From assembly GCA_051003655.1 (NCBI GenBank), contig JBPCLD010000097.1:1-27954 (forward strand): a stretch of 27,954 nucleotides of DNA, given 5' to 3'. Under the pieces are notes generated by a model, which had not been told where the DNA came from, made no database searches, and was given only the letters and a program-made list of their open reading frames with translations. Within the stretch, counting starts at the first letter, position 1; the number at the start of each line of letters is the position of its first letter. This stretch comes from Candidatus Limnocylindrales bacterium. GTDB lineage: Bacteria > Chloroflexota > Limnocylindria > Limnocylindrales > CSP1-4. Positions 397 through 25,325 of this stretch are shown piece by piece. The position numbers were made by a program, and so were the translations under genes.

Positions 397-1101
397 CTAC
401 GAGATCCGGGCCGCGTCGCGCGCCAACGGCAAGAGCAACTGGGTGCCCGGCGCGACGCGCGTGGGATCGTCGATGTCGTTGAACTGGGCCAGCGCGCGCC
501 AGTACCTTGCCTGGCCGTACTCGGACCAGGCCACTGAATGAAGCGACTCGCCTTCGATCAGGACATGGACACGCAACCCGGCACGGCTGCCAGAAGTTGG
601 GTTCTGGCGGCGCGACGGGACGGGCACCTCTTCGAGCGAGATGTTGCAGGTGGCCCGTATCGGCGTGCCGTCCATCCGGAACATCGTGTAATTGGCGCTC
701 ACGCTGCTGAGGTAACCACGGAAGCCGGTCAGCACCTGGCTCGAGCCCCAGCGAAATCCCAGCAGAGGCGGCTGCGACACGCCCTTTGTCTTGACCGGGC
801 ATGGCTTGGTCCAGGTGAAGAGCGTCTCGACGTCCTCGGAGACATCCCCGAACAGATCCGAGAAGGCGTCGAAGAAGATGTCCATGGTCACGGAGCGTGG
901 GTTCGTCGATCGGTAAGTCGGCGGCGGGGTGGATTCCGCCTCGCTGGCGGTTGGATGCGTCCAGTCGGATGACTTCGTGAGCGTGAACTGCTCCGGGTTG
1001 TACTGGAACTTGAGCGACATCGGCACGCCCTTGCCCTTGACCACCTCGAGCGTCGCCTTTTCCAGCGCGAGGGACGGAATGTTCGGACCCAGCCTGCCCA
1101 T
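397..1101 (-). CDS. CIS tube initiator (Afp7/Pvc7-like) with C-terminal LysM-like domain
   Basis: C-terminal 234 aa of track ORF 397..1533. ATG at 1101 overlaps the upstream TGA (TGATG). Motifs FQYNPEQFTLTKS, LLGFRWG, MFRMDGTPIRATCNISLEE, then LysM-like GESLHSVAWSEYGQARYWRALAQFNDIDDP. Confidence 0.9.
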   Translation of the reverse strand: MGRLGPNIPSLALEKATLEVVKGKGVPMSLKFQYNPEQFTLTKSSDWTHPTASEAESTPPPTYRSTNPRSVTMDIFFDAFSDLFGDVSEDVETLFTWTKPCPVKTKGVSQPPLLGFRWGSSQVLTGFRGYLSSVSANYTMFRMDGTPIRATCNISLEEVPVPSRRQNPTSGSRAGLRVHVLIEGESLHSVAWSEYGQARYWRALAQFNDIDDPTRVAPGTQLLLPLARDAARIS

Positions 1102-1523
1102 CAGAAGGGACCCGCGAAGCCATTGTGGGAGAGCTCGAGGGTCTCGGTCGCCTGCTGGTTGCCATCGATGTCGAGCGTTGGACCCGACCAGCGGACGGGG
1201 TACACGCCGATCAAGTACCAGTCGGCGACGCTCGAACCGGTCGCGTCCATGACCGAGATCTGGCCCGTCCCGGGCAACGGAAATATCTGAACGCTCTGTA
1301 CCCACAGCGAGACGCGCGAGGTGTGCTCGTCGATGGGTCTCGTGAGCTTGATGTTCTCGAACTTGGCGCGGCCGGGCAGGCGGTGGATGAAGCCGTTCTC
1401 GCCCCCTTCCTTGTGCTCGTAGATGTCGTACTCGATCGACAGCCCATCGCACTTCTGCCAGTTGCCGAAGTCCTGGCCGTCGATGCTGACCTTGAAACGC
1501 AGGCCGAGCGCGGTCTCGGTCAT
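1101..1523 (-). CDS. Phage tail tube protein (T4 gp19-like, Afp5-like, second tube)
   Basis: RFKVSIDG..G.WQKCDGLSIE....EGGENGFIHRLPGRAKFENIKLTR and W.LIGVYPVRWSGPTLD...ATETLELSHNG are typical gp19-family eCIS tube motifs. Confidence 0.92.
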   Translation of the reverse strand: MTETALGLRFKVSIDGQDFGNWQKCDGLSIEYDIYEHKEGGENGFIHRLPGRAKFENIKLTRPIDEHTSRVSLWVQSVQIFPLPGTGQISVMDATGSSVADWYLIGVYPVRWSGPTLDIDGNQQATETLELSHNGFAGPF

Positions 1524-3337
1524 GGCAGGTCAACCATCAGGCCGGCGCGCTCGCGATCGACCAGGAGCTCGCGCCGCAGCCGGCGGCTGATGCGGCCGTA
1601 AAGCTGCCCCGCCAATTCCTCCAGCTCTGTCTCCGACTTCTTGCCGCTGCTGTCCGTGGCCGTGCCGCTCGAGCGCGGCTTCTCGGCGCCTTTGTCCTCT
1701 CGGGCGCGCTGGACACCGGGAAAATTGACCGTCGTCGTCTCGACGACGGAGGATGAGGCGCGGGCGCCATCTGCCGGCTTTCGCTGGGCTGCGGCCATGT
1801 CGTCTGGCCTGGATTCTTCGGTCTGCGTTGGCCGCGCCGGCGGCTGGGCGAGAGGCAGCTCGGGATGGTGCTCGGCAGCTGCTGCAGTCCGCTCGAGCTC
1901 CTGTCCATGGGACGTGTGCTCCTGCGGCAGTCGGCTTCCGTAGGCCCTCTGCTGGGCGACATGCGTCATCTCATGGGCGATGAGCGAGCGCGCTGCGACA
2001 GAGCCCATCGGTCCGGCGCTCGACGGCAGATAGATCTCCCCCTGGTGGGTGAATGCCTTGGCGTCGAGTGACTCGGCGAGCTCGGAGGCGAGGGTCCCGC
2101 GATGGACCTTTACCGGGCCACCGCCGACGGAGGCGGACCTGCCTTCCGCCTCGGCGCTATCGCGCGATGGGCGGGCTCGTGTCGCCGTCATCTGCGCGCG
2201 CTGGACGCGGGTACGCAGCGGACTGGCTGAAAGCAACGGCGCGCTGGGCAGCCTGGCGGCGGCACCAGTGCCGGCGGCGCCCACGAACCGCGTGGCGGTA
2301 CGACGCGCTGCGGAGGTTGGCTCTGGCGTGGGCGTGGGCGTCGCCGTCGCGGCTGACGCGGGCGCGGAGTCCGCCGGCTTGCGCTGCACTTCCGCGCGGG
2401 CCGGCAGGGGGAGCGGGGAGGCTCGGTCTGGTCCGGAGAGCGGTGCCGCGGTGACGGGCGCGGCGGTGATCGGAGCTCCGAGGCCCAACTTGCGCGACTG
2501 GCCAAGTGTCAACCGCGACGGTGCGCTGATTGGAGCCGTGGGCTCGCCACCTCCGCGGCCACGGCCACGGTCCGCGTCCGCCGGTTTGCGCGAGATGGGA
2601 CCGGCCAGTGGCGGCTTGGCAGGAGTGCGCTGGGCCACGGACGCTGATGGAGCCACGGCCGCCAAGTGCGCGGCGATCGGAGTAGGCCCGGCCAGGGTCG
2701 ACGCTGACGCCTGAGCTGCCAACCCCCTCGGTGTCGGCTGGCCGACAACACCCACCGCCCTGGTCGGCCCGAGGGCACCTTGATCGCGTTCGGACAGCCG
2801 CGCCAGCTTCAGCGGGGCGCGTTGAACCGCGGCGGCCGGGGGAATGGGGCGAGCACGCACCTGGGGCACCGCGCGCTCTTCGGCAAGCGCAGCAGGCAGG
2901 GGCGCGGGCATGGGCAGCGGGACAAGCTCGGCCTACGATGCCGGCTCGGGCGCCTGGGCCGACATCTCCGCGCCGGCTCGCACGTTTGGCCTCCGCTGCA
3001 GCAGGGGCCGCGCATCAGGCTCAGCCGCGCGTTGGACGGGCTTGGCCATGCCCACGACGATGCCGCTGGGAGCGTCGAGACCTCGGCCATGCCCCAACGG
3101 TGCCAGCACTGGCGGGGGCGGATGGCCGGCGCCCAGATCTGCGGCGAATGGCGCCGTCGGCGCGATCAGCGGCGGCGGCCCCACGGTTTCGGCCATCGGC
3201 GGTACCTGGCGCCACTCGGCCCGCCGCTCTGATTGCGCGCCGAATGGCAAGGGCGCAGGCGCGGACGCAGGTGCAGCCACCGCGCCACTCGACGCGGGTG
3301 CGCGCTGAAAGAGTCGGAACGGCCAGGACAGCCGCAT
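1520..3337 (-). pseudogene. Pro/Ala-rich DUF4157 (eCIS core domain) protein, interrupted by an in-frame TAG at 2933-2935 (split gene, nonsense allele, readthrough or sequencing error)
   Basis: Track ORFs 2933..3337 and 1520..2911 are in the same frame (...EPAS*AELVPLPMPAP...). The 3' part has the DUF4157-type motif AFTHQGEIYL...LIAHEMTHVAQQR (HEMTH at 1961-1975) and the C-terminal helix ELEELAGQLYGRISRRLRRELLVDRERAG seen in actinobacterial-type CIS loci. The downstream ORF may still be expressed from ATG 2911. Confidence 0.65.
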
Positions 3338-3343
3338 GCGGAG

Positions 3344-3502
3344 CTACTCCTCCTCGCTGAGGCGGCGATTGATGCTGGCGATCTCGTCGACGAAACGCTG
3401 CCGGTCGGCGTGCTCGAGATCCAGGATCTCGTCGAGCGACCAGTGGAAGTGGTAAGCCACGTACGCAACCTCCTCATACAGCCGCTCGGCTGCGTACGTC
3501 AT
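3344..3502 (-). CDS. DUF6760-like small CIS protein (52 aa)
   Basis: MTYAAERLYEEVAYVAYHFHWSLDEILDLEHADRQRFVDEI. ATG at 3502 overlaps the chaperone stop (ATGA). Confidence 0.88.
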   Translation of the reverse strand: MTYAAERLYEEVAYVAYHFHWSLDEILDLEHADRQRFVDEIASINRRLSEEE

Positions 3503-3924
3503 GACCCCCCCAGGCGCTCTCCTGCCATCTCCACCGTGAACTCGTGGTTGCACGCCGGACAGCTGACGGCCGCCTGGGTGGTGCCTTCCTGGTTGATCCG
3601 CTTGTAGAGGTCTTGCAGGAAGGCGAGGTCTGAGGCGAACATGTTCTCGACGATCCCCGGGTGAACCTCGCCGAGGCGGCCCAGGCGGGTGATCACGCGC
3701 GAGAGAAGGAGCACCGTGAGGTACGCCTCGTTCTCGCGGACGCGGGGATCGCGCTGCGGAACGATCTCGTCCTTGGCTGTTGCCAGGCGCATGACGCCGT
3801 CCCGATGGACGATGCCGGTTGTGTCGACGTAGCCGCGCGGCAGCAAGAACGGGAACTCGGTCCGCAGCTCGTTATCGGCTGCGGCCGCCGGCCCACCGCC
3901 GGACATGTTGGCCGGATTGATCAT
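3499..3924 (-). CDS. Phage tail assembly chaperone-like CIS protein
   Basis: TEFPFLLPRGYVD...HRDGVMRLATAKDEI.PQRDPRVRENEAYL.VLLLSRVITRLG...ENMFASDLAFLQDLY.RIN, ending in CPAC. Located directly after the tube gene. Confidence 0.88.
   Translation of the reverse strand: MINPANMSGGGPAAAADNELRTEFPFLLPRGYVDTTGIVHRDGVMRLATAKDEIVPQRDPRVRENEAYLTVLLLSRVITRLGRLGEVHPGIVENMFASDLAFLQDLYKRINQEGTTQAAVSCPACNHEFTVEMAGERLGGS
3505..3511 (-). other. Candidate -1 slippery heptamer G GGG GGG at the end of the chaperone gene
   Basis: mRNA reads CUG GGG GGG UCA UGA. The -1 frame is open into the DUF6760-like ORF. Confidence 0.4.
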
Positions 3925-3942
3925 GGCTTAACCCCGCTCGCA

Positions 3943-4398
3943 CTAAACGCGCTCGATGGACTCGGTGACGATCGAGACCTCTTCCATCAGCATCTCGTTC
4001 GCGCCGGCCTTGAGCGTGCCGGTACTGATCTTGGATACCCAGGCGTTGGTGAAGTTGTAGCGGCCGACCTCCGAGCCGTCGAAGCTCTTCAAGATGATCG
4101 AGCCGTTGCGCCGGGCGTCGCCAAGCTTGCCCTGCATCACCGCCTGGTGCCAGTCCCACAGCGCCGTGGACGAGTTCTTGGCTCGCTTGAGCGTGAGGGT
4201 GGCCGGCTTGACGGCGCCGGGGGCCTTGTGGATGACGAGCTTGCCGTCGAGGGTGTTCTCCTTGAGCTCGATTACGTCGACCTCGGAGGCGAGTCCGCTC
4301 AGTTCCGAGAACTGGGCGATCTCGGTCCGGTCGACCTCGATTGCGAAGGTGTACGACGCGAGTGCGTCAGAGGGGAGGTCGGGTAGGCCCTTGGCCAT
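3943..4398 (-). CDS. Major tail tube protein (T4 gp19-like, Afp1/Cis1-like)
   Basis: YTFAIEVD...FSELSGLASEV.VIE....LTLKR....LWDWH....ARRNGSIIL....RYNFTNAWVSK. AAAGGAG RBS upstream. Follows the sheath gene. Confidence 0.95.
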   Translation of the reverse strand: MAKGLPDLPSDALASYTFAIEVDRTEIAQFSELSGLASEVDVIELKENTLDGKLVIHKAPGAVKPATLTLKRAKNSSTALWDWHQAVMQGKLGDARRNGSIILKSFDGSEVGRYNFTNAWVSKISTGTLKAGANEMLMEEVSIVTESIERV

Positions 4399-4444
4399 CT
4401 GTCGGCTCCTTTTCGCTTTGTGCTAGCTGGTGAATCGGTGCCGC

Positions 4445-5971
4445 TTACTCGCTCAGCGCCGCGCCACCCGACATCTGCGCGATGCGGAAGACGACGAACT
4501 CGGCCGGCTTGACCGGCGCAATGCCGATCTCGACGACCAGCTGGCCGGCGTCAACCACCTCGGGCGGATTGGTCTCAGCGTCGCACTTGACGTAGAACGC
4601 CTCGCCCGGCGTTGCCCCGAAGAGGGCGCCGTCGCGCCAGACGCGAACGAGGAACGCGTTGAGCGTTCGCTTGACGCGCTGCCACAGGTTCAGGTCGTTC
4701 GGCTCGAAGACGACCCATTGAGTGCCCTCGAGGATCGACTCCTCGACGTAGTTGAAGAGCCGCCGGACGTTGAGGTAGCGCCATGCCGGGTCGCTCGACA
4801 GCGTCCTGGCGCCCCACACCCGGATGCCCCGGCCGGGGAACGCGCGGATGCAGTTGATGCCCGCTGGATTGAGCTGGTCGTGCTCGCCCTTGGTGATCTG
4901 CAGCTCCAGCGACAGGGCGCCGCGGATCGTCTCGTTGGCCGGCGCCTTGTGGACGCCTCTGGTGTCGTCGTTGCGTGCCCAGATGCCCGCCATGTGCCCG
5001 GACGGCGGCACGAACATGCCCGTGCCCGAGAGCGGGTCCTGGACCTTGATCCAGGGCCAGTAGAGCGTTGCGTACTTGGAGTCGTAGCCGACCTTGTCGA
5101 CACGCCACTCTCGCACCTGCTGGGCATTCAACCCTGGCGGCGCGTCGAGGATGGCGACCCGATCGCCCATCAGCTCACAGTGGGCAATCATCGCCTGCTG
5201 TACCGCCTGGACGCCTTCGAGGTCGATCGTGCCCTTCTGGTAGACGCCCATCAGGTCGGGCACCGCGAGCATGGTCACGGTATCGACTGCCTCCAAGCCG
5301 CCGAAACCGGTGCGGTCGGCTGAGTCGCCGACGTAGTCGTCGGGCGTCAGCCGAACCGGCTTCGCGCCGTCGGCGCCGGCGAGAGTGGTCTTGCCTCGAG
5401 CCGGGATGCGCTCGAGGGCGCCCGCGCTTCCGATCTCCTCGATCTGGATGAGCTTGGACTGCTCCTTGACCATCGTCACGACGTTGTTCTTGCCGCGCTT
5501 GGTACTGACGTTGTCATAGGTCTCTGTGTCGCGGCCGGGAGCGGTGACGGTGAGCTTGAACGTGTCCTCGGCGGCGTCGGCGGCCTCGGTGATCTCGACG
5601 TTGATCTGGTTTCCGGCCGGGCCGGACTCCAACGCGCTGATCCGATAGCCAGCAAGCTTGACGTCCTTCTGGCTCGCGATCTCGGCGCGTGCTGACGACA
5701 TCGGCGCGTCGCCTCCGATGCGTACGACGTAACAGGCGCCGCCGCCATTGAGGAAGTAGCCATAAACGGCGTGCCCGAGATACGCGCCTTCGGTGAAGTC
5801 GCCGAACGTGTTCACGAACTGTGACCAGTTGGTGACCAGCGTCGGTGCGTTCGTTGGTCCCGTGGCGGCCAGGCCGACGAACGCGGCAACGGCCGTGCCT
5901 ACGCCTTCGATCGGGCGCGATCCGGCCTCGACCTCCTCGACATAGACGCCGGGCGAGAGATAGTTCGGCAT
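4445..5971 (-). CDS. Contractile tail sheath protein (508 aa)
   Basis: True start MPNYLSPGVYVEEVEAGSRPIEGVGTAVAAFVG with GGAGG RBS (the track ORF extends upstream). Contains YATLYWPW, PPSGH.AGIWARND..RGVHKAPAN, GRGIRVWGARTLS, WRYLNVRRL and APVKPAEFV. Confidence 0.97.
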   Translation of the reverse strand: MPNYLSPGVYVEEVEAGSRPIEGVGTAVAAFVGLAATGPTNAPTLVTNWSQFVNTFGDFTEGAYLGHAVYGYFLNGGGACYVVRIGGDAPMSSARAEIASQKDVKLAGYRISALESGPAGNQINVEITEAADAAEDTFKLTVTAPGRDTETYDNVSTKRGKNNVVTMVKEQSKLIQIEEIGSAGALERIPARGKTTLAGADGAKPVRLTPDDYVGDSADRTGFGGLEAVDTVTMLAVPDLMGVYQKGTIDLEGVQAVQQAMIAHCELMGDRVAILDAPPGLNAQQVREWRVDKVGYDSKYATLYWPWIKVQDPLSGTGMFVPPSGHMAGIWARNDDTRGVHKAPANETIRGALSLELQITKGEHDQLNPAGINCIRAFPGRGIRVWGARTLSSDPAWRYLNVRRLFNYVEESILEGTQWVVFEPNDLNLWQRVKRTLNAFLVRVWRDGALFGATPGEAFYVKCDAETNPPEVVDAGQLVVEIGIAPVKPAEFVVFRIAQMSGGAALSE

Positions 5972-6070
5972 GCGATGCCCTCCGAATTTGTGCAGAGCGG
6001 ACTCGCCGAGGCTCCCATCGCCCGTGGCACGCGGATAGGTGCGGCCGGACCGCGATTCGGGAAGGCACGG

Positions 6071-6086
6071 CTGCCCGTTCGGGCAG
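6071..6086. promoter_or_regulatory. Inverted repeat CTGCCC-gttc-GGGCAG in the divergent sheath/DUF4255 intergenic region; candidate operator
   Basis: 6-bp arms with a 4-nt spacer. GGCTGCCCG recurs at 6069 and 6103. Confidence 0.4.
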
Positions 6087-6157
6087 CGCCGGTCGCCCCA
6101 ATGGCTGCCCGGTGTTCGGTTGCCGCATCCCTCGCGCGCGCGGAACCTGCCTATCCG

Positions 6158-6967
6158 ATGATCCACGACGTCGACGAATCGCTGCGCGCGCTTGTCCGCC
6201 GCGACGCCCTGAACGGTTCAGGGGTCGAGGTCGCCTTCGACGCGCCAACCAAGGAATGGGTGGCAAGGCGCAACTCGCCGGTTGTCGACCTCTACCTGTA
6301 CGACATCCGCGAGGACACGACCCGCCGCCAGACCTCGTGGGAGGACGTCAAGGATGAGACGGGGCGCGTCATCGAACGTCGCCTGCCGCCACGCAGATTT
6401 CGCTTGTCGTACCTGGTCACCGCCTGGACGCAGCGACCTGAGGACGAGCACCGGCTGCTTTCTGCGTTGCTCTCGTGCTTCGTGCGCCACGAGTTCATGC
6501 CGGCTGAAGTGCTCGCCGGCTCACTCGAAGGCGAGACCGTGCCGGTCCTGCTGACCGTCGCCCTGCCGCCGACGGAGGACCGCTCGATCGCAGATGTCTG
6601 GTCGGCCATGGGCGGCGAGCTCAAGCCGTCTCTGGACCTGGTCGTGACCGCGCCGATGAACATCGCGCGCAGCATCGAAGCCGGTCCGCCGGTGCTCGAA
6701 CTGCCGCGTCTCACCGTACTCGGGGCGGACGGCGTCGCCGAAACGACCGGCGATGGGCAGGCCGACCCGCCTGCGGCTGCCAGGACCACAGCGCCGAAGA
6801 CGTCACCCGGCAAGAAGCGCTCGGCGAGTGATTCGAAGGTTGTTCGACTGCCCGCCATCGCACCGGCTCCCGACGCACCCGAAGGCGTTCCCGACGAGGT
6901 GCTGGCCGCCGGCTCGCCCGACCAGCCAGGCCGGAGGATCAGGGTCCGCCAGTTCAATCGGCGATGA
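6158..6967 (+). CDS. DUF4255 / Pvc16 (Afp16-like) tail terminator/cap protein
   Basis: Start MIHDVDESLRALV at 6158. Motifs VAFDAPTKEW, VDLYLYDIRED, LSYLVTAW, EDEHRLL, WSAMGGELKPSLDLVVT. Low-complexity C-terminal tail. Confidence 0.92.
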   Translation: MIHDVDESLRALVRRDALNGSGVEVAFDAPTKEWVARRNSPVVDLYLYDIREDTTRRQTSWEDVKDETGRVIERRLPPRRFRLSYLVTAWTQRPEDEHRLLSALLSCFVRHEFMPAEVLAGSLEGETVPVLLTVALPPTEDRSIADVWSAMGGELKPSLDLVVTAPMNIARSIEAGPPVLELPRLTVLGADGVAETTGDGQADPPAAARTTAPKTSPGKKRSASDSKVVRLPAIAPAPDAPEGVPDEVLAAGSPDQPGRRIRVRQFNRR

Positions 6968-9057
6968 CCGAGCCGTTCGAATCGAGAGGAGGCCACGACA
7001 GGGCGCTGGAGCATCTGCTATTGCGGCTCGACCTGCTTTCAGCCCGTGTCCATGTCGCCGTCGCGCGTCGGCGGGAGCGAGATCCCGACCCGGAAGATCG
7101 TTTCCGCGGCCTGTACATCGGAGAGGCGGCGATCGACGATCTGCTCAGCACGCCCCGATCGTCGCTCTGGGACCCGTCCGCGGACGATATTTCGCGGCAG
7201 ATCGAGCAGCGCGCTGACGAATGGGAGGTCGAAGGCGAGCGCCTCCGTCTGCGCCGGTTGGCGGGCGCGTTCGCCCTCGATCTGGTCGACATCGACATCA
7301 TGCTCGTGGCGCTCGCCCCAGATCTCGATCCGCGCTTCGAACGCTTCTACGGGTACCTCCACGACGACGTGACGCGCAGGCGCGCGAGCGTGGGTCTCGC
7401 TCTCGAGCTGTCTGGGATAGAACCATCAAGCGCCGACGGTCGCTCTCGCCTTGCGCCATCCAGTGACCTTGTCGCGGGCGGGCTGCTGACCATCGAGGAT
7501 CCGGACCGACCGCTGCTCACGCGTGCCATTCGAGTCCCCGATCGCGTATCGGCGCACCTCGTCGGCGATGACTCCTTCGAGCCCGGCACCGCGGCCCAGT
7601 TGCTCGACGTTCCCTCTCGCGAGGGCACGGTGTGGGCGCCGCTCGACAACGCTCTCGCCAAGGGCATGTCGCCCGTTTATCTGCGCGAGCCGGGCGGAAC
7701 GTCGGCCGCATCGGTAGCCGCAGCATCGGTCGTGCGTGCCGGTCGGGTGCCACTGCTCGTCGACTTTGCCCGGCTGGTCGGCGCGCCAGACCCATTTGGC
7801 TCGGCCAACGCCGTGATTCGCGAGGCGAGAATGCGCGATTGGATCTTGGTTGGCGTGCCGGTCGACTCGCTGTTGGACCGAGCGCCGGGTGTAATCGACC
7901 TTTTCGCCGAGGCACTGTGCCCTGTTGTACTCGCTGGGGCGCGCGCGTGGGACCCGGCCTGGTCACGCGCCGTACCGCTGTTGCTGGAGGTGCCCCAGCC
8001 CACGGTCGCCGAGCGGGCGGATCAGTGGGCAGCAGCGCTCAACGGCCATTCGGCGGACCCTGCGCTGCTCCGGGCCACGATGGCCTTCCGGCTCACCCCG
8101 ATCCAGGTGGCCCGCGCTGCCAAGGCCGGCCGGATGTCGGCGAGCGCCTACGATCGCGAGGTCGAGGCGTTGGACGTCCAGGTTGGCGCACGCTCACAGA
8201 ACGCGGCGGGCCTCGATCGCCTCGCACATCGTGTCCAGCCACGGGCGAGCTGGAGCGATCTCGTCCTGCCCCATGGCGTCGTTCAGCAGCTGCAGGAGCT
8301 CGCGGCACGGGCGCGCCACCGTGAACGCGTCTACGACCAATGGGGCATCGGTGGCCGAGCGTCGCGCGGACGTGGCATCACGACGCTCTTTGCCGGTGAC
8401 TCAGGTACGGGCAAGACGCTGGCCAGCGAGGTCATCGCGGGCGAACTTGGGCTTGATCTCTACGTCATCGACCTCTCGACCGTGGTCGACAAGTACATCG
8501 GCGAGACCGAGAAGAACCTGGATCGCATCTTCGCCGAGGCAGACTGGGTCAACGGCGTATTGCTGTTCGACGAGGCAGACGCGATCTTCGGCAAGCGATC
8601 AGAGGTCAAGGACGCGCGCGACCGCTACGCGAACGTGGAGATCGCCTACTTGCTGCAGCGGATGGAACGATTCGACGGCCTTGCTGTTCTTACTACGAAC
8701 TTACGGGCGAATCTGGACGATGCGTTCACCCGACGGATCGACGTGATCGTGGACTTCCCGATGCCGGAGGACGACGACCGCCGCGCTCTGTGGGGGATGC
8801 ATCTACCGCCGGAGCTTCCGAAGGCGGACGACATCGACCTCGAATTCATGGCCCGCCAGTTCCGATTCAGCGGCGGCAACATCCGCAACGTCTGCCTGAC
8901 CGCTGCGTTCTTCGCGGCCGAAGGCGACCGACCGGTGACGATGGGCGACTTGATCCGTGGGACTGACCGCGAGTACCGCAAGCTCGGCCGCCTCACGGTC
9001 GAAGACGAGTTCGGCCAATACATGGCCCTGATGGCCGCAGAGCGCCAACCAGCGTGA
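6964..9057 (+). CDS. eCIS AAA+ ATPase (Afp15/Pvc15-like)
   Basis: Walker A GDSGTGKT (8395-8418), Walker B LLFDEAD, LDLYVIDLSTVVDKYIGETEKNL, LLQRME, TTNLRANLDDAF.RR. N-terminal LALAPDLD.RFERFYGYLHDD..RR motif typical of eCIS ATPases. Confidence 0.95.
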   Translation: MTEPFESRGGHDRALEHLLLRLDLLSARVHVAVARRRERDPDPEDRFRGLYIGEAAIDDLLSTPRSSLWDPSADDISRQIEQRADEWEVEGERLRLRRLAGAFALDLVDIDIMLVALAPDLDPRFERFYGYLHDDVTRRRASVGLALELSGIEPSSADGRSRLAPSSDLVAGGLLTIEDPDRPLLTRAIRVPDRVSAHLVGDDSFEPGTAAQLLDVPSREGTVWAPLDNALAKGMSPVYLREPGGTSAASVAAASVVRAGRVPLLVDFARLVGAPDPFGSANAVIREARMRDWILVGVPVDSLLDRAPGVIDLFAEALCPVVLAGARAWDPAWSRAVPLLLEVPQPTVAERADQWAAALNGHSADPALLRATMAFRLTPIQVARAAKAGRMSASAYDREVEALDVQVGARSQNAAGLDRLAHRVQPRASWSDLVLPHGVVQQLQELAARARHRERVYDQWGIGGRASRGRGITTLFAGDSGTGKTLASEVIAGELGLDLYVIDLSTVVDKYIGETEKNLDRIFAEADWVNGVLLFDEADAIFGKRSEVKDARDRYANVEIAYLLQRMERFDGLAVLTTNLRANLDDAFTRRIDVIVDFPMPEDDDRRALWGMHLPPELPKADDIDLEFMARQFRFSGGNIRNVCLTAAFFAAEGDRPVTMGDLIRGTDREYRKLGRLTVEDEFGQYMALMAAERQPA

Positions 9058-15600: not shown

Positions 15601-18465
15601 CGGCTCAAGGCGAACTTCGAAACGCTGACGGACGTCGTCGCCGTGCTCGCGCCCATGGCTCAGGGCGCAACCAAGCTCGTGGACAAACTTGGGCGAAGCA
15701 CCAAGGGCGCGTACGTCCTGCAGACCTTCGCGAAAACGGCGGATGTCGCGAACGAATTCATGATGCCCGCCACATTCGTCAACGACCTCGACAAGATCGT
15801 CAAGGACAAGAGCATGGGCGGGCCCGAGAGGGAAGCCGCGATCGTGATGCTCTTCGGCCGCGGCCTTCGCGACGGCACAGTCCAATACGTCAAGGTGACC
15901 CGATCTCACCGCGCGGGCGGAGACCAGCTGGCTCCGGGCTCCCCGGACCCGTCCCCAACTGGACCACCTGCGACCGCGGTGGGCGTCGCGACCCCCGCCG
16001 GGGGGGCTCCAACCACGAAGCCCATCCCGGCTCCCGACATGGGAGCCACTGGCACGGCCGCACGACCCCCCGTCGGGGAGGGCGCACCATCCGCCCCGAC
16101 GCCCATCCGCGCACCCACAGCGCGTCGCGCCGATGTTGACAAGCAGTTCGACGTATCCGACGTCACGCCCGTGGAGCCGGCTCGGCGACGGGACCGTGGC
16201 GAGTCGAGCGAGATGCCACCCGATCCAACTCGGCCGGCCATCCGCCTGCCCGAAGCTGAAGGTGGCCCGTCACCCAAGCGGGCAGGCGACGGGCCAGAGG
16301 CGGCGCCTGGGACAGAAAAGGCACGCAAGACAAACATCGAGATCATCCAGCAGGAGACCAGGGCTGACGCGCGGGCGAAGGCGCGTGCGGCCGAGTTTGC
16401 GCCACTTTTCTTCAAGTGGAAGGATCTCCATACCGTCCAGCGTCAGAAGCAACTCGAGCAGCTGATCAACGCTCACCTGGCGAGCGAAGGCGTGCCGCGC
16501 ATCATCGTCGACCCGATCGACGTGCGCGCCGGTAACGCGTCATTCCGGTTCCAGGAATGGCGCATCCATATCAGCGAACACTCGCTCAACAACAAGAACA
16601 TGACGCCTGACAAGTTCGCCGAGCTCGTAGACAACGCAACACACGAAGCGCGTCACGCGGTGCATCACTATCGCGGCCTGCGCATCGCAATCCGTGAAGG
16701 CCGACACAACTCCGATGCGAAGATTCACCAGCCCATAGTTGCTGCGGCAAGAAAAGCGAATAGGCAGGGCGATCCTCGAAAGGAAATGTCGGAAGAGGCT
16801 TACGGTGAAGCGAAGGAGATATACGAAGTAACGCATCTGGCTGATCAACGGCAGGCCAAGATCGGCGGAGACGCACTCAACCGCGAGGCCGTTCTCAACC
16901 GTAAGGACGTCACGCGGGACTCAGCGGCGCTAGCCGCCAAGAAGCTCAACGAACTCGAAGCACAGGGCAAGAAGGGCACGCGCGAATACGCCGACGCTTT
17001 GGCCGACCACCGGATCGCGCTGCGTGAGGCGCAGAATGCGCACGACGGGTACGTGGGCCTTCCCCAGGAAACCGACGCCGGGCGGTACGGGAGCTCCGTG
17101 CGCAAAGCTACCGCTGAGCGTCTGGCTTTGATGATGCGCGTCAACGGGGCGAAGCTGGCGCGCGAGCAGGCGGCTCAGGCGGCCCGTGACGCACGTCGCA
17201 TCGGAGACCGCGCCGACATGGACGCCGCAGCACAGGCATATCTGGCCGCTCACAAGCGCGCGCTCGTGGCTCAGGCAGAGCTCGATGGGCTCGTGAGCAA
17301 AGAGCCAAGGGAAGTCGGCGGACGCGTCATGACTCAAGAGATCCCTGCGGACCCGAATCTCGGCCGCAGAACCGGTGCGTCCGAGGAGCCGGGGGCCGGT
17401 GCAGGAGAACGACTACGGCCTGGCGAAGTCCGCCTCCCGCCCCGCGAACATGGCCGTGGCGACGAGTCATCGCCGCCGCCGGGGGCCGAGCCCGACGCTC
17501 CTGACGCAGCAAGGACCGCCGATACGACCGCCACCAGGCCCTCTGCTGGAGCGGGCATGCCCGCGGCGAAGGCCCCTAAGGCCGCGCCAATGCTGCCGGG
17601 CTCGGAGGTACCGGCGGACCTTGGCAAGGCCGCACGACCGACAATCGAGCCCAAACCGGCCGACATGAGCTTGGACAGGGGTCGCGACCTGGCCGCTCAA
17701 CCTCACCCTCGCGCCTCGATCCCAGACGCGGAATACGCTCCGGACCAGCCCGGCCGATACGTCCGCACGGGTGATAAGCCGGTATCAGGGGTCTCGCAAG
17801 AATCGAACTTCGTCGTAAAGGACAGCAACGACGGCACGCTTCACCTCTTCAAGCCCACGGCGGGCGAGAAGCCGGTTGACCGAGCGGAAGACCGAGGGAT
17901 CCGGGCGGGAGAGCAGGCGCCCCGCGAGGTCGGCGCCCACATGGCTGCGGAAGCGCTCGGCGTTCCATCGGTTAAAGCGAGGCTTGTCACCATCGACGGA
18001 ATTCCAGGCGTCCTGGTCGAGTGGCGCGCACAGAACACCCTGATGGACCTGCGGCTTACCGACCCACCGGCGTTCATGCGCCTCATTACCTCCGAGAAGT
18101 TTAAGCAGGCCATGCGCGGCCTGGACGCGCTCGACTACCTCATCAACAACCTCGATCGATCGCACAACTGGGGCAATTACCTGTATGAATTCCTCCCCGA
18201 CGGCACGTTGAAACTCACCGCCATCGACCATGGGCTCACATTCACAAGCACGAAGGATCGTGCCGACATCGTCGGTTGGACGCGCGAACTTCCGGACGCC
18301 TACTCGTCGGAGCTCGCCGGAAAGCTGCGCGACCTGAGCGCCAATCGGGCCGAGTTCATCGACAAGCTCAAGCCGTTTGTCGGCGATGAGGCGATACCGG
18401 GCGTTCTTCAGCGCCTGGACGCGATGGTCAAAGACATGGAGTCCAAGGAGCAAGCGTCGAAATGA
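12631..18465 (+). CDS. Putative CIS effector 2 (1944 aa): LQKTAGNHAV leader, large unassigned region, HExxH metallopeptidase-like module, C-terminal HipA/PI3-PI4-kinase-like domain
   Basis: ATGA overlap with the upstream gene. LQKTAGNHAV at 12802-12831, HEARH at 16642-16656. Kinase-like LFKP, REV, LDYLINNLDRSHNWGN, AIDHGLTF. Confidence 0.82.
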   Translation: MTAPQAPAAEKATHKPEIAPIAEAPERNRVDELASLSGLLPIAGSDLTFLDPGQVITLQKTAGNHAVNSLLQRSPTDAPPKPPPKLKGRRRGRPVPQMPMDPPSTLFDTIDDMPWLVDSISHVVEEDTERSRRKGFQPDIVDGSVSAAVIFARDAVFFFNSSATLYAVESNLDGEVSPDRPQELPKPKFTLPNENMILVSEPSTGRSWRVFAMLRKELGDDDEAPEVIGLHLVRTESKPHLPPGFRSGELVVSVYVPARLAARSPVPHPGWKAKQGPAKEQPKETPAWAKSKYARVQKLLAAPDGDDEAEKAPPQGTGLGMEGTGPGGGGTGTQGVPGARAGVAPVPDQKVKKPATKGRIVTKKRRAKPDKVALFQGDQGPLLNVWEGKSHQTIPLKPGEPDRELKQRIEEAAGKQVSTGQTLAEAVTETGFTGGQGQGRPTLEQILEATEFTANAAEYPSKMEMQGGSGAEVSPSGWATTITGGKHKFDMILDYDARNFGLANQVFARLGFIDYYWQVIDISGMDPGAGALRARGETESREDFDLEMRKRARVAALNQDRAREVGEFEGLKEDVSDMASNKWEDAKEDLWASKAQGVGLVALDAAWNIGKALLSAFISKMTEPENRQEIAFAKPGEYLIRCLANPQPNKDAPLDKQTRRATSIAVFPVRVVDVNKRALEVTRQDATQLKQAQYLFTQMQAKLDADPKNESLRAAVRIAKREAGLSEAKYKYTASEKAESELADFDKQIAVLEKLADAKKGLQPIDLPGEERTIGLQLKDDVLKRWGRSGGIAAWYEYQYQIEDVKKARKQKAEQKAIADKKASQIAVGSEMRPRPRVTFVSEENGALVKMDMVLGRTPGSSQDKPRWILADVTTEKTSRSYNGKSDKSGTEGDAEAIKNAFREFCDKAEYGRGTIAIDLPGNATLIPSGTTMLMKPGEAARWKARLDSLVEIAGLVAPYVKGGQLIGRVIAAYGALGAAEKLYDRAVNDRLKANFETLTDVVAVLAPMAQGATKLVDKLGRSTKGAYVLQTFAKTADVANEFMMPATFVNDLDKIVKDKSMGGPEREAAIVMLFGRGLRDGTVQYVKVTRSHRAGGDQLAPGSPDPSPTGPPATAVGVATPAGGAPTTKPIPAPDMGATGTAARPPVGEGAPSAPTPIRAPTARRADVDKQFDVSDVTPVEPARRRDRGESSEMPPDPTRPAIRLPEAEGGPSPKRAGDGPEAAPGTEKARKTNIEIIQQETRADARAKARAAEFAPLFFKWKDLHTVQRQKQLEQLINAHLASEGVPRIIVDPIDVRAGNASFRFQEWRIHISEHSLNNKNMTPDKFAELVDNATHEARHAVHHYRGLRIAIREGRHNSDAKIHQPIVAAARKANRQGDPRKEMSEEAYGEAKEIYEVTHLADQRQAKIGGDALNREAVLNRKDVTRDSAALAAKKLNELEAQGKKGTREYADALADHRIALREAQNAHDGYVGLPQETDAGRYGSSVRKATAERLALMMRVNGAKLAREQAAQAARDARRIGDRADMDAAAQAYLAAHKRALVAQAELDGLVSKEPREVGGRVMTQEIPADPNLGRRTGASEEPGAGAGERLRPGEVRLPPREHGRGDESSPPPGAEPDAPDAARTADTTATRPSAGAGMPAAKAPKAAPMLPGSEVPADLGKAARPTIEPKPADMSLDRGRDLAAQPHPRASIPDAEYAPDQPGRYVRTGDKPVSGVSQESNFVVKDSNDGTLHLFKPTAGEKPVDRAEDRGIRAGEQAPREVGAHMAAEALGVPSVKARLVTIDGIPGVLVEWRAQNTLMDLRLTDPPAFMRLITSEKFKQAMRGLDALDYLINNLDRSHNWGNYLYEFLPDGTLKLTAIDHGLTFTSTKDRADIVGWTRELPDAYSSELAGKLRDLSANRAEFIDKLKPFVGDEAIPGVLQRLDAMVKDMESKEQASK

Positions 18466-18749
18466 CCGTGGTGGAAATCCGTCGCCGGCGTCCGGACGAC
18501 GGTCAAGTCGAGCGACTGGCGCGCGTCTACGCCCGTGGACCGGGATGCCCAGCCGAGTACGAGGTGCTGGCTCCGGATTTTCGAGAGGGTCTCGACATGG
18601 TCATCGCGGACGGCGTCACCGGCATCAGCGGCCGTCAGCTTTACCTCGCCGACGGAGATGAGTTTGTCGCTGCTCTGCCCGAGTTCTATCGGGGCTCGCG
18701 CTTCTGGGCCGAAGAAGTTTCGGATGTCGACGTGGAGCAGCCGGGTTAG
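18462..18749 (+). CDS. Small protein (95 aa), putative immunity protein 2
   Basis: ATGA overlap with effector 2. Paralog of 12359..12634. Confidence 0.8.
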   Translation: MTVVEIRRRRPDDGQVERLARVYARGPGCPAEYEVLAPDFREGLDMVIADGVTGISGRQLYLADGDEFVAALPEFYRGSRFWAEEVSDVDVEQPG

Positions 18750-19393
18750 ATCAACCCCTGCTTGATCGCGTAGGCGACGGCGTGGGTGCGGTTGCGCAGC
18801 TCGAGCCGGCTGGTGATGTCGTGGATGATGTTTTTAACGGTCCGCTCCGAGTAGTAGAGCTTGCCGCTCACCTCGGACGTGTCCAGACCCTCCGCGAGTA
18901 GCTTCAAAACGTTCAGCTCCCGCTCGCTCAGGCCGGAGAAGGTCAGGCCGCGCGGCGCCAGCACCTGGCGCTGCAGCTGGCCGACCTGGTGAAGCAGCCG
19001 GGCCAGCATGTCGGGCGGTAGCGTCCCTTCACCGGATGCCACCGACCGGATCGTCGCCACGATGTTGCCGACGGTCGCCTGCGAGCGTCGCAGAACGCCA
19101 CTGACGCCCGCCTCAACTGCCGCCAGGAGGGAGCGGTCATCGATTCGCGTCACGAGGAGCCCGACACCGTCCGCTCCTCCTCGCCGAAGGCCACGGATGG
19201 CGCGGAGCGCCTCTCCGTCGACCTCGTCGGCCACCACCAGCGCAACGCCGGGTTCGCTCAGATCCTCTTCATCGACAACGCGAACCCCGGCCGTCCCCCG
19301 AAGCTGCGCGACGGTTCCTGCGCGTGACAGCGGATCAGCGGCCCACACGCAGACATCGATCCTCGCCGCTGTCGGCTCCCCAAGCGCGTACAT
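18746..19393 (-). CDS. LuxR/NarL-family transcriptional regulator (degenerate receiver-like N-terminus + HTH)
   Basis: Start MYALGEP at 19393 with GGAGG RBS. HTH region LSERELNVLKLLAEGLDT.EV..KLYYSERTVKNIIHDITSRLELRNRTHAVAYA. LuxR genes of this type commonly flank actinobacterial CIS loci. Confidence 0.92.
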   Translation of the reverse strand: MYALGEPTAARIDVCVWAADPLSRAGTVAQLRGTAGVRVVDEEDLSEPGVALVVADEVDGEALRAIRGLRRGGADGVGLLVTRIDDRSLLAAVEAGVSGVLRRSQATVGNIVATIRSVASGEGTLPPDMLARLLHQVGQLQRQVLAPRGLTFSGLSERELNVLKLLAEGLDTSEVSGKLYYSERTVKNIIHDITSRLELRNRTHAVAYAIKQGLI

Positions 19394-19489
19394 GACCCCT
19401 CCAGATCCTGGTGACGGCCCCCTGCGCGAACGATTGCCCACGAAGGCTGCGTCACGACACTTGCCAATGACTAAACACTGACTTAACGG

Positions 19490-19531
19490 GCCCGCCCAGT
19501 TGCCCGAAAGCCCGCCCAGGCGGCCCCGAAA
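19490..19531 (+). repeat. Imperfect direct repeat in the LuxR / membrane-protein divergent intergenic region
   Basis: GCCCGCCCAG-tt-GCCCGAAA followed by GCCCGCCCAG-gcg-GCCCCGAAA. Confidence 0.55.
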
Positions 19532-19560
19532 GCGGACTGTTCGTGCGTCCGATACGCGGC

Positions 19561-19566
19561 TATGCT
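19561..19566 (+). promoter_or_regulatory. Candidate -10 element TATGCT, possibly giving a leaderless transcript
   Basis: TAnnnT hexamer 8 nt before ATG 19575, with no Shine-Dalgarno sequence in between. Confidence 0.35.
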
Positions 19567-19574
19567 GGCCGCCG

Positions 19575-20768
19575 ATGGGCGCCCTGGCAGTTCTCGAAAC
19601 GCGTCTGCTGCCGGTGGAACCGGGCAGTCAGGCATCGGCCCAGGTCCGCGTGCGCAACACCGGCACTGTCGTGGACCAGTTCACGTTCCAGATCCTCGTT
19701 GATGCGCAGGGCTGGGCTGCCGTTCAACCGCCCACGCTGTCGCTCTTCCCCGGCGCCGAGGAAACGGTCACGGTCACCTTCAGCCCGCCGCGGTCGCCGC
19801 AGGTACCCGCCGGCCAGATGCCCTTCGGCGTCCACGTCATGTCCAAGGAGGACGCCGCCGGGTCCGTCGTCGAGGAAGGCGTCCTGGACATCGCGCCGTT
19901 TAGCGACGTATTCGCCGAGCTTGCCCCACGGACGTCGCGTGGACGCGGCAGCGCCAGTCACGACCTGGCCATCGACAACCGTGGCAATGCTCCGCTGAAT
20001 GCCTCGCTGAGCGCGGCTGACCCGGACCGGCTGCTCACCTTCGAGGTCATCCCGCCCGGGATCGTCGCCGATGCGGGTACTGCGTCGTTTGCCAAGGTCA
20101 GCGTCAAGCCGCGCCAGCGGTTCTGGCGGGGATCGGCCCGAACGCGGCCGTTCCAGGTCCTCGTCGAGCAGCCGGGCAGCGGCTCCATCACCGTTGACGG
20201 GACCATGGTCCAGGAGGCGATTCTGCCGTCCTGGTTCATGCGTGCGCTGCTCCTGCTGCTGGGCCTTCTGGTGGCGGCCGCCATCCTTTGGGTTTTCCTG
20301 ATTCGGCCGGCCATCCAGGCGACGGCGGAGGAGCGGGCTGAAGAGGTCCTGGCAGCGGTTGGCATCACGCCTGGCCCAGATCCGATACCCAACCCGAACC
20401 CCAACCCGAACCCAAACCCGACGCCGACGCCGGTGCCAGGCAGCTCGCAAAGCCCAGCCCCACCTGTGGTCGCCGGTCTGGGCGAGCTGATCGATGGCCG
20501 CATCGACGCCGGCGGCGCGCCCCTCGTCGGAGACGCGGGCAAGACGCTGTTCATCACCGACCTGGTCTTCAGTAACCCGATCGACGCAGCGGTGGGCGAC
20601 CTGAGCCTGGACCGGGCCGGACAGCGCCTGCTCGGTTTGCGGCTCGAGAACTTCCGCGACCTTGACTTCCACTTCGTCACCCCGATCGCCGTGCTTGCGG
20701 GCCAGCAGGTCTCGCTGAACTGCGGCGGATGCACCGCGTCGGTGTACTACTCCGGCTACCAGAGGTAG
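19575..20768 (+). CDS. CIS-associated bitopic membrane protein (COG1470-like Ig-fold N-terminus, TM, Pro-Asn linker, small C-terminal domain)
   Basis: V.VRNTGTVVDQF.F..L, TLSLFPG, FGVHV.SKED, DNRGN motifs; TM WFMRALLLLLGLLVAAAILWVFLIRP; C-terminal ITDLVFSNP...LENFRDLDFHFVTPI. Resembles the so-called hydrolytic proteins of Streptomyces CIS loci. Confidence 0.78.
   Translation: MGALAVLETRLLPVEPGSQASAQVRVRNTGTVVDQFTFQILVDAQGWAAVQPPTLSLFPGAEETVTVTFSPPRSPQVPAGQMPFGVHVMSKEDAAGSVVEEGVLDIAPFSDVFAELAPRTSRGRGSASHDLAIDNRGNAPLNASLSAADPDRLLTFEVIPPGIVADAGTASFAKVSVKPRQRFWRGSARTRPFQVLVEQPGSGSITVDGTMVQEAILPSWFMRALLLLLGLLVAAAILWVFLIRPAIQATAEERAEEVLAAVGITPGPDPIPNPNPNPNPNPTPTPVPGSSQSPAPPVVAGLGELIDGRIDAGGAPLVGDAGKTLFITDLVFSNPIDAAVGDLSLDRAGQRLLGLRLENFRDLDFHFVTPIAVLAGQQVSLNCGGCTASVYYSGYQR
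20388..20432 (+). repeat. Coding (PN)5(PT)2P low-complexity linker
   Basis: ccc aac ccg aac ccc aac ccg aac cca aac ccg acg ccg acg ccg. Confidence 0.85.
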
Positions 20769-22774: not shown

Positions 22775-22798
22775 GCCGGCGCTGATCATCGTCCGTCG

Positions 22799-24040: not shown

Positions 24041-24049
24041 CCCCTCCTG

Positions 24050-25156: not shown

Positions 25157-25325
25157 CGGCCCCTCTTCCGGCGCACGGCCCCACCTGCAACCCGGTCGGC
25201 GCAGCGGGCCAGCAAAGAGGCGGAGTATACGTAGGTCCACCGCGGCTTCCGACTGCTAGGACGGTGCAACCCTCCGCGCCTTACGGCCGGCATTGACTTT
25301 TCCAGGTTGGGCGTACCGTGGCTGT

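Follow-up and report, generated by a model that had tools for sequence, protein, structure and literature searches.

Predicted kinase-bearing cargo proteins and their coupled small partners at a Streptomyces-type contractile injection system locus of an uncultured Limnocylindrales bacterium

Introduction

Why does a bacterial contractile injection system (CIS) carry, directly behind the gene for its ATPase, two large genes that end in the same kinase-like domain, each followed by a small gene of its own? The question is raised by JBPCLD010000097.1, a contig of Candidatus Limnocylindrales bacterium (assembly GCA_051003655.1; Chloroflexota, Limnocylindria, Limnocylindrales, CSP1-4). The stretch of DNA analysed here, termed the window, spans 27,954 nucleotides and equals contig C97 in its entirety; the metagenome-assembled genome (MAG) to which it belongs comprises 1.77 Mb and is 70% complete. 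The large genes, BIG1 (9054..12362, plus strand, 1102 aa) and BIG2 (12631..18465, plus strand, 1944 aa), and their small partners, S1 (12359..12634, plus strand, 91 aa) and S2 (18462..18749, plus strand, 95 aa), had been read in an initial annotation as the payload of an extracellular CIS (eCIS), i.e., as toxic kinases of the HipA family that are probably delivered to bacteria or to the producer lineage itself and paired with cognate immunity proteins.

Cargo proteins in a hypervariable slot

BIG1 and BIG2 are modular cargo (effector) proteins of the CIS, a status that is well supported, since their position, a hypervariable slot, the associations of their families, orphan loci and the loading precedent of another CIS all agree. 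Both genes lie at the 3' end of an operon, directly after an Afp15/Cis15-type AAA+ ATPase gene, and this arrangement is syntenic in relatives. The operon runs on the plus strand and comprises six open reading frames (ORFs) in the order Pvc16-like gene, ATPase, BIG1, S1, BIG2 and S2, where all five junctions from Pvc16/ATPase through BIG2/S2 are 4-nt overlaps, either ATGA or GTGA. Chained start/stop overlaps of 4 nt are a classic mark of a single translationally coupled operon, and as every junction has one, the six genes are taken as one operon. The ORFs are exactly as first described, with two large genes that share a terminal kinase-like domain (190/289 identical residues in the C-termini, 66%, E 3e-118), each coupled to a paralogous gene of 91-95 aa (53/92 identical between S1 and S2, 58%, E 1e-36). 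The ATPase (6964..9057, plus strand, 697 aa; PF22977 WHD, 1e-29; PF00004 AAA, 1e-21) is presumed to be the cargo unfoldase and loader, and is 55-70% identical to its counterparts in the CIS loci of relatives.

The cargo genes occupy a slot between the ATPase gene and a convergent GerE/LuxR regulator gene (18746..19441, minus strand; PF00196, E 8e-13), which forms the conserved right border and is syntenic and 64-78% identical in relatives' loci where located. The slot was compared in eight further Limnocylindrales genomes with the same CIS, in which the sheath (and the tube) are 87-90% identical where compared. Its contents differ widely. Kinase proteins of 1375 aa (G030) and 1284 aa (G027) are found in two genomes, a 773-aa protein with a divergent kinase domain in a third (G025), and in a fourth a 1351-aa protein whose kinase domain is internal and whose C-terminus is formed by a different domain (G016; L026:7325-11718). 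The others encode a 1728-aa protein with an ADP-ribosyltransferase exotoxin domain (G014; L039:1824-7010; ADPrib_exo_Tox, E 3e-9), a 1351-aa protein of unknown type (G012; L041:2169-6224), four proteins including one eCIS_core protein (G013; L040:2089-13571) or several short proteins (G011; L042:1396-8628). The cargo islands of G011-G014 hold one to four proteins each, of approximately 130-1730 aa, two of which have weak Peptidase_M6-type HExxH matches. A leader of the LQxxxGNxAV type starts every slot protein checked, a set to which the G025 protein does not belong. The same leader and slot are paired, depending on the genome, with kinase, ADP-ribosyltransferase or HExxH modules or with unknown domains. 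By analogy with the system discussed below, the shared leader is a candidate loading signal.

Beyond the slot, eCIS_core is found in 9 of the 33 full-length relatives of the kinase and CdiA_C in one, and a distant member of the kinase family adjoins a CIS ATPase gene. Five kinase-partner loci lie away from any CIS gene; all of them retain the leader, and four of the five genomes encode a sheath elsewhere. Two of these orphan loci were examined, one located between metG and tatD and the other near ftsZ. These pairs (L021:4917-11903 and L023:10001-13466) are thus surrounded by housekeeping genes, and in two genomes they are found on the same contig as the CIS cluster, at a distance of 150-360 kb. 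A precedent for loading is provided by AlgoCIS, where a disordered N-terminal domain common to the cargos of a given system is necessary for loading, and where loading requires an AAA+ protein; Alg15, a homologue of the window ATPase, is required for cargo loading, and DUF4157 is dispensable for cargo (preprint 10.64898/2026.05.27.728243).

Some relatives depart from this plan in size or integrity. Giant relatives of 4086-4308 aa from groundwater metagenomes (L031:1-10282; P0010) harbour two kinase domains, one internal and one C-terminal; behind them lie only one small partner and a GerE/immunoglobulin (Ig)-like block as in the window. In two long-read MAGs the kinase cargos are split by frameshifts (L022:6902-10769; L024:6989-11042), and the CIS ATPase gene of G009 (C4:74554-76392) contains five in-frame stops. 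Sequencing errors or decaying loci could account for these cases.

Architecture of BIG1 and BIG2

The resemblance between BIG1 and BIG2 is confined to their ends, a leader of approximately 70 aa (LQRxAGNxAV) and a C-terminus of approximately 290 aa, and their middles are unrelated. The two leaders (BIG1, 9054..9266, plus strand, with LQRAAGNRAV at residues 57-66; BIG2, 12631..12843, plus strand, with LQKTAGNHAV at residues 58-67) align with each other, and the N-termini share 28/71 identical residues (39%, E 2e-7). A public gene call (P0008) places the start of BIG1 48 codons later and yields 1054 aa; the GTG at 9054 is the better start, because the residues upstream of the public call align with the BIG2 leader. 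In a search of the leader (~85 aa) against an index of 5.8 billion proteins, its own protein was the sole match, the leader being too short and variable for that search.

Between leader and kinase domain, BIG1 consists of a helical region, a Gly/Ala-rich region (~400-640) and a Pro-rich linker (~640-870). In BIG2 the leader is followed by approximately 1000 aa of unknown domains, a Pro-rich linker, an HExxH module (~1230-1600) and a second Pro-rich linker. Pfam returned nothing usable for the middle parts even at E <= 5, but some of their sequence recurs in other cargos: the middle of BIG1 (263-680) is 47% identical to the G027 cargo, and residues 1-1226 of BIG2 are 37% identical to the cargos of L019 and L023. 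Neither protein has a clear transmembrane (TM) helix, and according to Pfam both lack the eCIS_core (DUF4157) domain, which is present in another gene of the same locus (1520-2911). The HExxH module of BIG2 (motif THEARHAV; window positions 16300-17400, residues ~1230-1600) is without a Pfam match. Atlas leads were weak, pointing to SprT-like, LPD23 and DUF6782 metallopeptidases with scores < 0.9, and the region is 25% identical, a weak similarity, to a leader-bearing 993-aa cargo in G013. The module may provide a second activity or act as a self-processing protease.

The C-terminal kinase domain

The kinase domains of BIG1 (11595..12359, plus strand) and BIG2 (17698..18462, plus strand) are 68% identical and adopt, as predicted for the modelled BIG2 copy, a fold like that of type II phosphatidylinositol 4-kinases (PI4K) and HipA. 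Conventional family searches contributed little. Pfam and NCBIfam scans of BIG1, BIG2, S1 and S2 assigned no family except for TIGR03843 (SCO1664 family), a full-length but sub-threshold NCBIfam match (E 3.7e-7); full-length BIG1 and BIG2 did not match PF00454 at E <= 0.1, and a single-sequence search of the PDB gave no match. An exhaustive search of 1.84 billion representatives retrieved only 135 relatives of the domain, and hence the family is rare. PF00454 is matched by 15 of the 33 full-length relatives at E <= 0.001 (best 6.9e-8). The family profile matches PI4K type II beta (PI4K2B, E 1.7e-5) and also FAM20A and actin-fragmin kinase.

The catalytic residues are conserved. Across 56 aligned domains there is no variation at K52 (LFKP), D153 (NLDR), D177 (IDHG) and R239 and hardly any at N160, which bears out the choice of lysine and aspartate residues in the initial annotation; the catalytic K, D, N and D are all present in BIG1. 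The FKP lysine, the DR..N loop and the ID.G motif align with VFKP, NTDRGNDN and IDNG of PI4K2B, and the G-rich loop aligns as well. An AlphaFold2 model of the BIG2 domain (predicted local distance difference test score, pLDDT, 96.2; predicted template-modelling score, pTM, 0.93) returned PI4KIIalpha as the top Foldseek match (E 1.2e-9, probability 1.00, TM score 0.57), followed by HipA entries (E 6e-7 to 5e-6, TM score 0.40-0.50) and Helicobacter pylori CtkA (6e-6).

These searches confirm that the domain is kinase-like and shift its placement. The fold is similar to that of HipA, yet the domain is nearer to type II PI4K in profile and in fold, the window proteins match none of HipA_C, HipA_N and Couple_hipA in Pfam, a weak HipA_2 match occurs in just 2 of the 33 relatives (4.5e-6), and a HipB-like antitoxin is absent. 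Judged from sequence and model, the domain is predicted to be an active atypical kinase of the PI3/PI4K-HipA-CtkA superfold, nearest to type II PI4K and not a member of the HipA family. Toxicity by analogy with HipA is a weak argument, and the substrate could be a lipid, a protein or something else.

Of 117 family representatives, 95 end with the kinase domain, which thus takes the usual place of a toxin domain. Many relatives (G002, G005, G008, G017, G018 and others; L009-L013), including a small-genome sister family, also encode stand-alone proteins of 250-350 aa with weak similarity to the domain (E 1e-4 to 1e-8). These are probably a housekeeping SCO1664-type kinase, from which the toxin kinase domain may be derived. 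G004 enters the analysis solely through a weak match of this housekeeping type and underlies none of the claims made here. The short family members P0013, P0015 and P0021 were considered as stand-alone toxin-antitoxin modules and rejected, as they are pieces of larger genes cut by contig ends.

The small partner proteins

S1 and S2, putative cognate immunity proteins or inhibitors, overlap the stop codons of BIG1 and BIG2 by GTGA and ATGA, respectively. They belong to a tight family of 58 clusters, all of 87-102 aa, all unnamed and none with a Pfam domain. S1 and S2 themselves gave no Pfam match, no Imm-type family, no helix-turn-helix (HTH) and no usable Atlas match. The model of S2 is a confident alpha/beta fold (pLDDT 89), for which Foldseek found neither a PDB counterpart (best E 0.26) nor a secretion-chaperone fold. 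The partner has an acidic tail and an invariant R-G-S-R motif, and as it lacks both a signal peptide and a TM segment, it is predicted to be cytoplasmic.

The distribution of the partner follows the kinase domain. Of 11 named loci, the nine in which the kinase is C-terminal have the partner gene directly behind it, overlapping by 4 nt, and the two with an internal kinase (L026, L027) lack it; metagenome contigs show the same kinase-then-partner arrangement. In L026 (G016) a different C-terminal domain of approximately 110 aa is followed by an unrelated 112-aa ORF with a 1-nt stop overlap; the two probably represent another type of toxin-immunity pair borne by the same carrier. The slot cargos of G012 and G014, which are those checked downstream, run straight into the regulator gene and leave no room for a partner. 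The identities of kinase and partner co-vary (r = 0.56). Taken together, the partner is specific to the kinase domain and not to the leader or the system. Thus, the polymorphic toxin-immunity layout that had been proposed is found, with a domain-specific downstream partner that recurs in relatives, and so is the neighbourhood conservation with CIS loci, since slot and kinase-partner layout recur as well.

The two kinase-partner cassettes of the window resemble each other more than any other cassette, an indication that kinase plus partner were duplicated in tandem onto different carriers. At approximately 73% DNA identity in the duplicated core, this event dates far back and does not reflect an error of assembly. 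A further variant is found at L037:4863-5534, where the gene behind that of a distant kinase with an eCIS_core N-terminus encodes a protein of 223 aa. This protein has a Cys4 zinc-ribbon-like N-terminus, and in a small search its C-terminal half proved similar to the family of S1 and S2 (E 3e-7).

The contractile injection system and its neighbourhood

The structural arm of the CIS (397..6166, minus strand) diverges from the cargo operon and is cut by the contig end, which falls ahead of the baseplate genes. Pfam matches identify the sheath (4445-6166), a tube protein (3943-4398), further structural-arm genes (3499-3924 and 2933-3337), the eCIS_core (DUF4157) protein (1520-2911) and a CIS_tube protein (397-1533), all on the minus strand; there are two tube proteins in all. 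On the plus strand, the cargo-arm operon starts with a Pvc16/Afp16-like gene (5975..6967; PF14065 Pvc16_N, E 7e-43), the stop of which overlaps the ATPase start by 4 nt; in relatives, the start of this gene lies approximately 62 codons downstream of 5975.

The sheath matches PDB entries 8BKY (E 7e-203) and 8BL4 (E 1e-199) over residues 66-569, nearly its full length, whereas the sheaths of the Photorhabdus virulence cassette (PVC), the antifeeding prophage (AFP), AlgoCIS and Anabaena align at the C-terminal domains only (E ~1e-45 to 1e-53). 8BKY is the sheath from a study of the cytoplasmic CIS of Streptomyces coelicolor (CIS-Sc), which stays in the cytoplasm of Streptomyces and whose effectors, encoded after the ATPase, drive stress-induced death of the producer (PMC10066040). 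Sheath and tube homology and the divergent Cis16-Cis15 arm thus assign the window locus, as far as sequence comparison goes, to the CIS-Sc type. Accordingly, the label "eCIS" used initially may be only partly right, since by analogy the system may be a cytoplasmic CIS; that BIG1 and BIG2 are CIS cargo stands, but their export and delivery to other bacteria are conjectural. The relative G016, for which a 1-Mb contig is available, encodes further along the structural arm a VgrG-like spike, PAAR, Baseplate_J and Tail_P2_I, followed by a zinc-ribbon protein and a regulator; no tail-fibre domain was detected by Pfam after these baseplate genes, and the window itself ends before its baseplate.

The GerE regulator at the other end of the cargo arm is a known eCIS-associated regulator beside such loci (PMC8213781). 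It opens a downstream block (18746-25240) that also comprises an Ig-like (Cep192_D3) protein, a 681-aa protein and two zinc-ribbon proteins, and which is syntenic in most CIS loci of relatives (G016, G025, G014, G012, G011, L031). The proteins of this block, as well as the zinc-ribbon protein after the G016 baseplate genes, are possible membrane or anchoring partners of the CIS.

Proposed mechanism and alternative explanations

How might these parts work together? The explanation that we favour, at a probability of roughly 60%, combines leader-guided loading, a kinase warhead and a partner that inhibits the kinase in the producer and is removed at loading. The shared leader would direct BIG1 and BIG2 to the co-transcribed AAA+ ATPase, which would unfold the cargo and load it into the tube. 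The long unrelated middles would serve as linkers or accessory modules, and the C-terminal atypical kinase of approximately 250 aa (PI3/PI4-kinase superfamily) would be the toxic warhead. Each kinase would be made together with its partner because it would be active in the ATP-rich cytoplasm of the producer; the translationally coupled cytoplasmic partner of approximately 90 aa would bind and inhibit its own kinase, as immunity protein or antitoxin, and be stripped off at loading. In this lineage the kinase-plus-partner cassette would have been duplicated in tandem and now be borne by two different carriers. Loading by the leader, toxicity, inhibition by the partner, substrate and target cell are all steps that we infer. 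The target could be neighbouring bacteria or, by analogy with Streptomyces, the producer itself. A cognate inhibitor fits best because the partner tracks the kinase, and a loading adaptor would be expected to track the leader; an immunity role is therefore the best reading of the partner and a plausible one.

Several observations weigh against this explanation. The BIG2 kinase domain scores 15.3 bits against PF00454 (E 0.019), below the Pfam gathering cut-off of 27.1. The domain has its nearest relatives among eukaryotic lipid kinases, and a role against eukaryotes, for which no immunity would be needed, is possible. The partner resembles neither an immunity family nor a solved fold, so that inhibition is a guess from its position; the cognate immunity proposed initially agrees with the gene layout, from which it is read. 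No orphan partner gene was found in 60 relatives, where the partner occurs beside the kinase only, one per kinase; this weighs against mutual attack, because orphan copies would be expected if neighbours used the kinases on each other. Finally, kinase domains with intact motifs occur without a partner, namely the internal copies in L026 and L027 and the C-terminal one of P0061, and the partner is thus not needed universally.

Part of this evidence would also suit a dedicated chaperone or adaptor, for which class I type III secretion chaperones and adaptor proteins of type VI secretion systems are the models. The partner would then keep the kinase soluble or loading-competent for the AAA+ ATPase, and the kinase would be aimed at a eukaryote, e.g., at the phosphoinositide metabolism of a protist or fungus, where immunity is unneeded. 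We regard this as unlikely. The nearest structures and profiles are indeed those of eukaryotic type II PI4-kinases, the partner is small, cytoplasmic and acidic at its tail, its strict 1:1 occurrence and the partner-less kinases are accommodated, and most validated eCIS toxins lack immunity genes (PMC8213781). However, the partner goes with the C-terminal domain and not with the leader, the part through which loading would be expected to occur, it is missing from other cargos that share this leader, its model shows no secretion-chaperone fold, and a downstream overlapping gene is in the typical immunity position. Moreover, no eukaryotic target is known for the nearest characterised CIS, which is cytoplasmic (PMC10066040), and Pfam shows no tail-fibre gene behind the baseplate genes of G016. 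The latter two points suit another possibility, a sub-case of the favoured explanation in which the partner is still an inhibitor: the kinase-partner pair would be a self-directed death module, the CIS firing inside the producer and letting the kinase, rid of its antitoxin, into the producer's own cytoplasm or membrane to bring about regulated cell death instead of attacking other cells. The nearly full-length sheath homology to CIS-Sc, the producer death mediated by the CIS-Sc effectors encoded after the ATPase and the missing orphan immunity genes all argue for it, but the Chloroflexota CIS is known from genes alone, its structural arm is incomplete in the window contig, and other slot cargos such as the ADP-ribosyltransferase, which would equally be released in the producer, have no antitoxin. 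This more specific version is quite unlikely.

Very improbable is a structural role, where BIG1 and BIG2 would be tape-measure or tube-lumen proteins, the kinase would be regulatory, e.g., phosphorylating CIS parts, and the small protein would be its substrate or a regulatory subunit. The two are the largest ORFs of the locus, their helical, Gly/Ala-rich and Pro-rich regions are reminiscent of the tape-measure-related effectors Tme and Sle1, and the R-G-S-R motif of the partner could be a phospho-acceptor or pseudosubstrate. A length ruler is incompatible, though, with slot proteins that range from approximately 130 to > 4000 aa beside sheaths and tubes of 87-90% identity, and on this ground a tape-measure role was excluded; the tandem arrangement of two such proteins, the orphan copies far from the CIS cluster and the ADP-ribosyltransferase toxin domain in the same slot also speak against it.

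Returning to the favoured explanation of loaded kinase and inhibiting partner, a bolder version can be formulated, which is rather unlikely in its entirety. BIG1 and BIG2 would be the first CIS-delivered kinases, atypical PI4K-II-like enzymes held inactive in the producer by a new inhibitor fold of approximately 90 aa, with the R-G-S-R loop as pseudosubstrate. The AAA+ loader would strip the inhibitor, and on firing of the cytoplasmic, Streptomyces-type CIS the kinase would be released. It would then either kill the producer, the pair serving as a toxin-antitoxin death switch gated by the CIS, or act in a neighbouring cell by phosphorylating an essential protein or a membrane lipid.

Relation to known systems

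The closest counterparts in gene order are Sco4256-4258, the CIS effectors of S. coelicolor (Casu et al. 2023, PMC10066040). Like BIG1 and BIG2, they are encoded with Cis16 and the Cis15 ATPase, divergent from the sheath, and they share among themselves "a highly similar N terminus". Sco4256-4258 are small proteins with one TM helix and ricin-type C-termini and have neither a kinase nor a partner gene, whereas the proteins of the window, from Chloroflexota instead of Actinomycetota, are of 1102 and 1944 aa, without a clear TM helix, and combine a terminal kinase with a coupled partner. Effectors of the Sle1/Tme type, including the M. eburnea pair RS14790/RS14785 (Nagakubo et al. 2024, 2026; PMC11126660, PMC13277306), are likewise large modular cargos with exchangeable C-terminal domains and are also associated with an eCIS_core (DUF4157) protein, and one of them is neutralised by the product of a small downstream gene (PMC13277306). 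As described, these effectors are set apart by their location beside the sheath and DUF4157 genes, their tape-measure homology and their nuclease-type domains, and kinase and partner family differ. The eCIS-associated DUF4157 toxins (Geller et al. 2021, PMC8213781) share the GerE regulator beside the locus, and some have cognate immunity genes. BIG1 and BIG2 differ in lacking DUF4157 itself; what they have is the leader motif found ahead of it in other proteins. No PI3_PI4-type kinase was found in those tables of that study that were available to us.

As for the kinase, type II PI4-kinases (PI4KIIalpha/beta; PDB 4HND, 4WTV) are the best fold and profile match, with aligned G-rich loop, VFKP lysine, DR..N and ID(N/H)G motifs. 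The window domain nevertheless shares only 17-18% identity with them (TM score 0.57), scores below the Pfam threshold, lacks the palmitoylation insert and stands in a bacterial toxin context. HipA/HipB and H. pylori CtkA belong to the same kinase superfold (Foldseek E 6e-7 and 6e-6, respectively), and HipA/HipB, a toxic bacterial kinase neutralised by a small partner, is a mechanistic precedent. In contrast to HipBA, the partner here is encoded downstream (HipB upstream), has no HTH and a different fold, and the kinase domain is fused to a secretion carrier.

Overall, the initial annotation had supposed more novelty in the combination than there is. Effector-immunity pairs at CIS loci (PMC8213781, PMC13277306), DUF4157-linked modular toxins with long linkers (PMC8213781) and modular effectors of Streptomyces-type CIS whose C-termini can be exchanged, one of them followed by an immunity gene (PMC13277306), are published, and HipA-superfamily and Zeta kinase domains are listed among polymorphic-toxin domains (PMC12419801, citing Zhang 2012). 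The CIS cargos in published surveys comprise nucleases, deaminases, NADases, proteases, ADP-ribosyltransferases and membrane-active proteins; in the accessible parts of the CIS-effector literature and tables searched, neither a kinase as CIS cargo nor this kinase subfamily nor the partner family was found. The layout is already known, and the enzyme type and the partner family are new.

Conclusions

The findings widen the CIS-Sc lineage to an abundant uncultured group of soil and freshwater Chloroflexota. The conserved leader, the bounded cargo slot and the orphan islands could help to define a loading signal of the CIS-Sc type and to search for further cargos. If BIG1 and BIG2 do carry a kinase warhead with an inhibitor of its own, the repertoire of CIS effectors would gain a new biochemical activity, and that of atypical-kinase inhibitors a new small fold.

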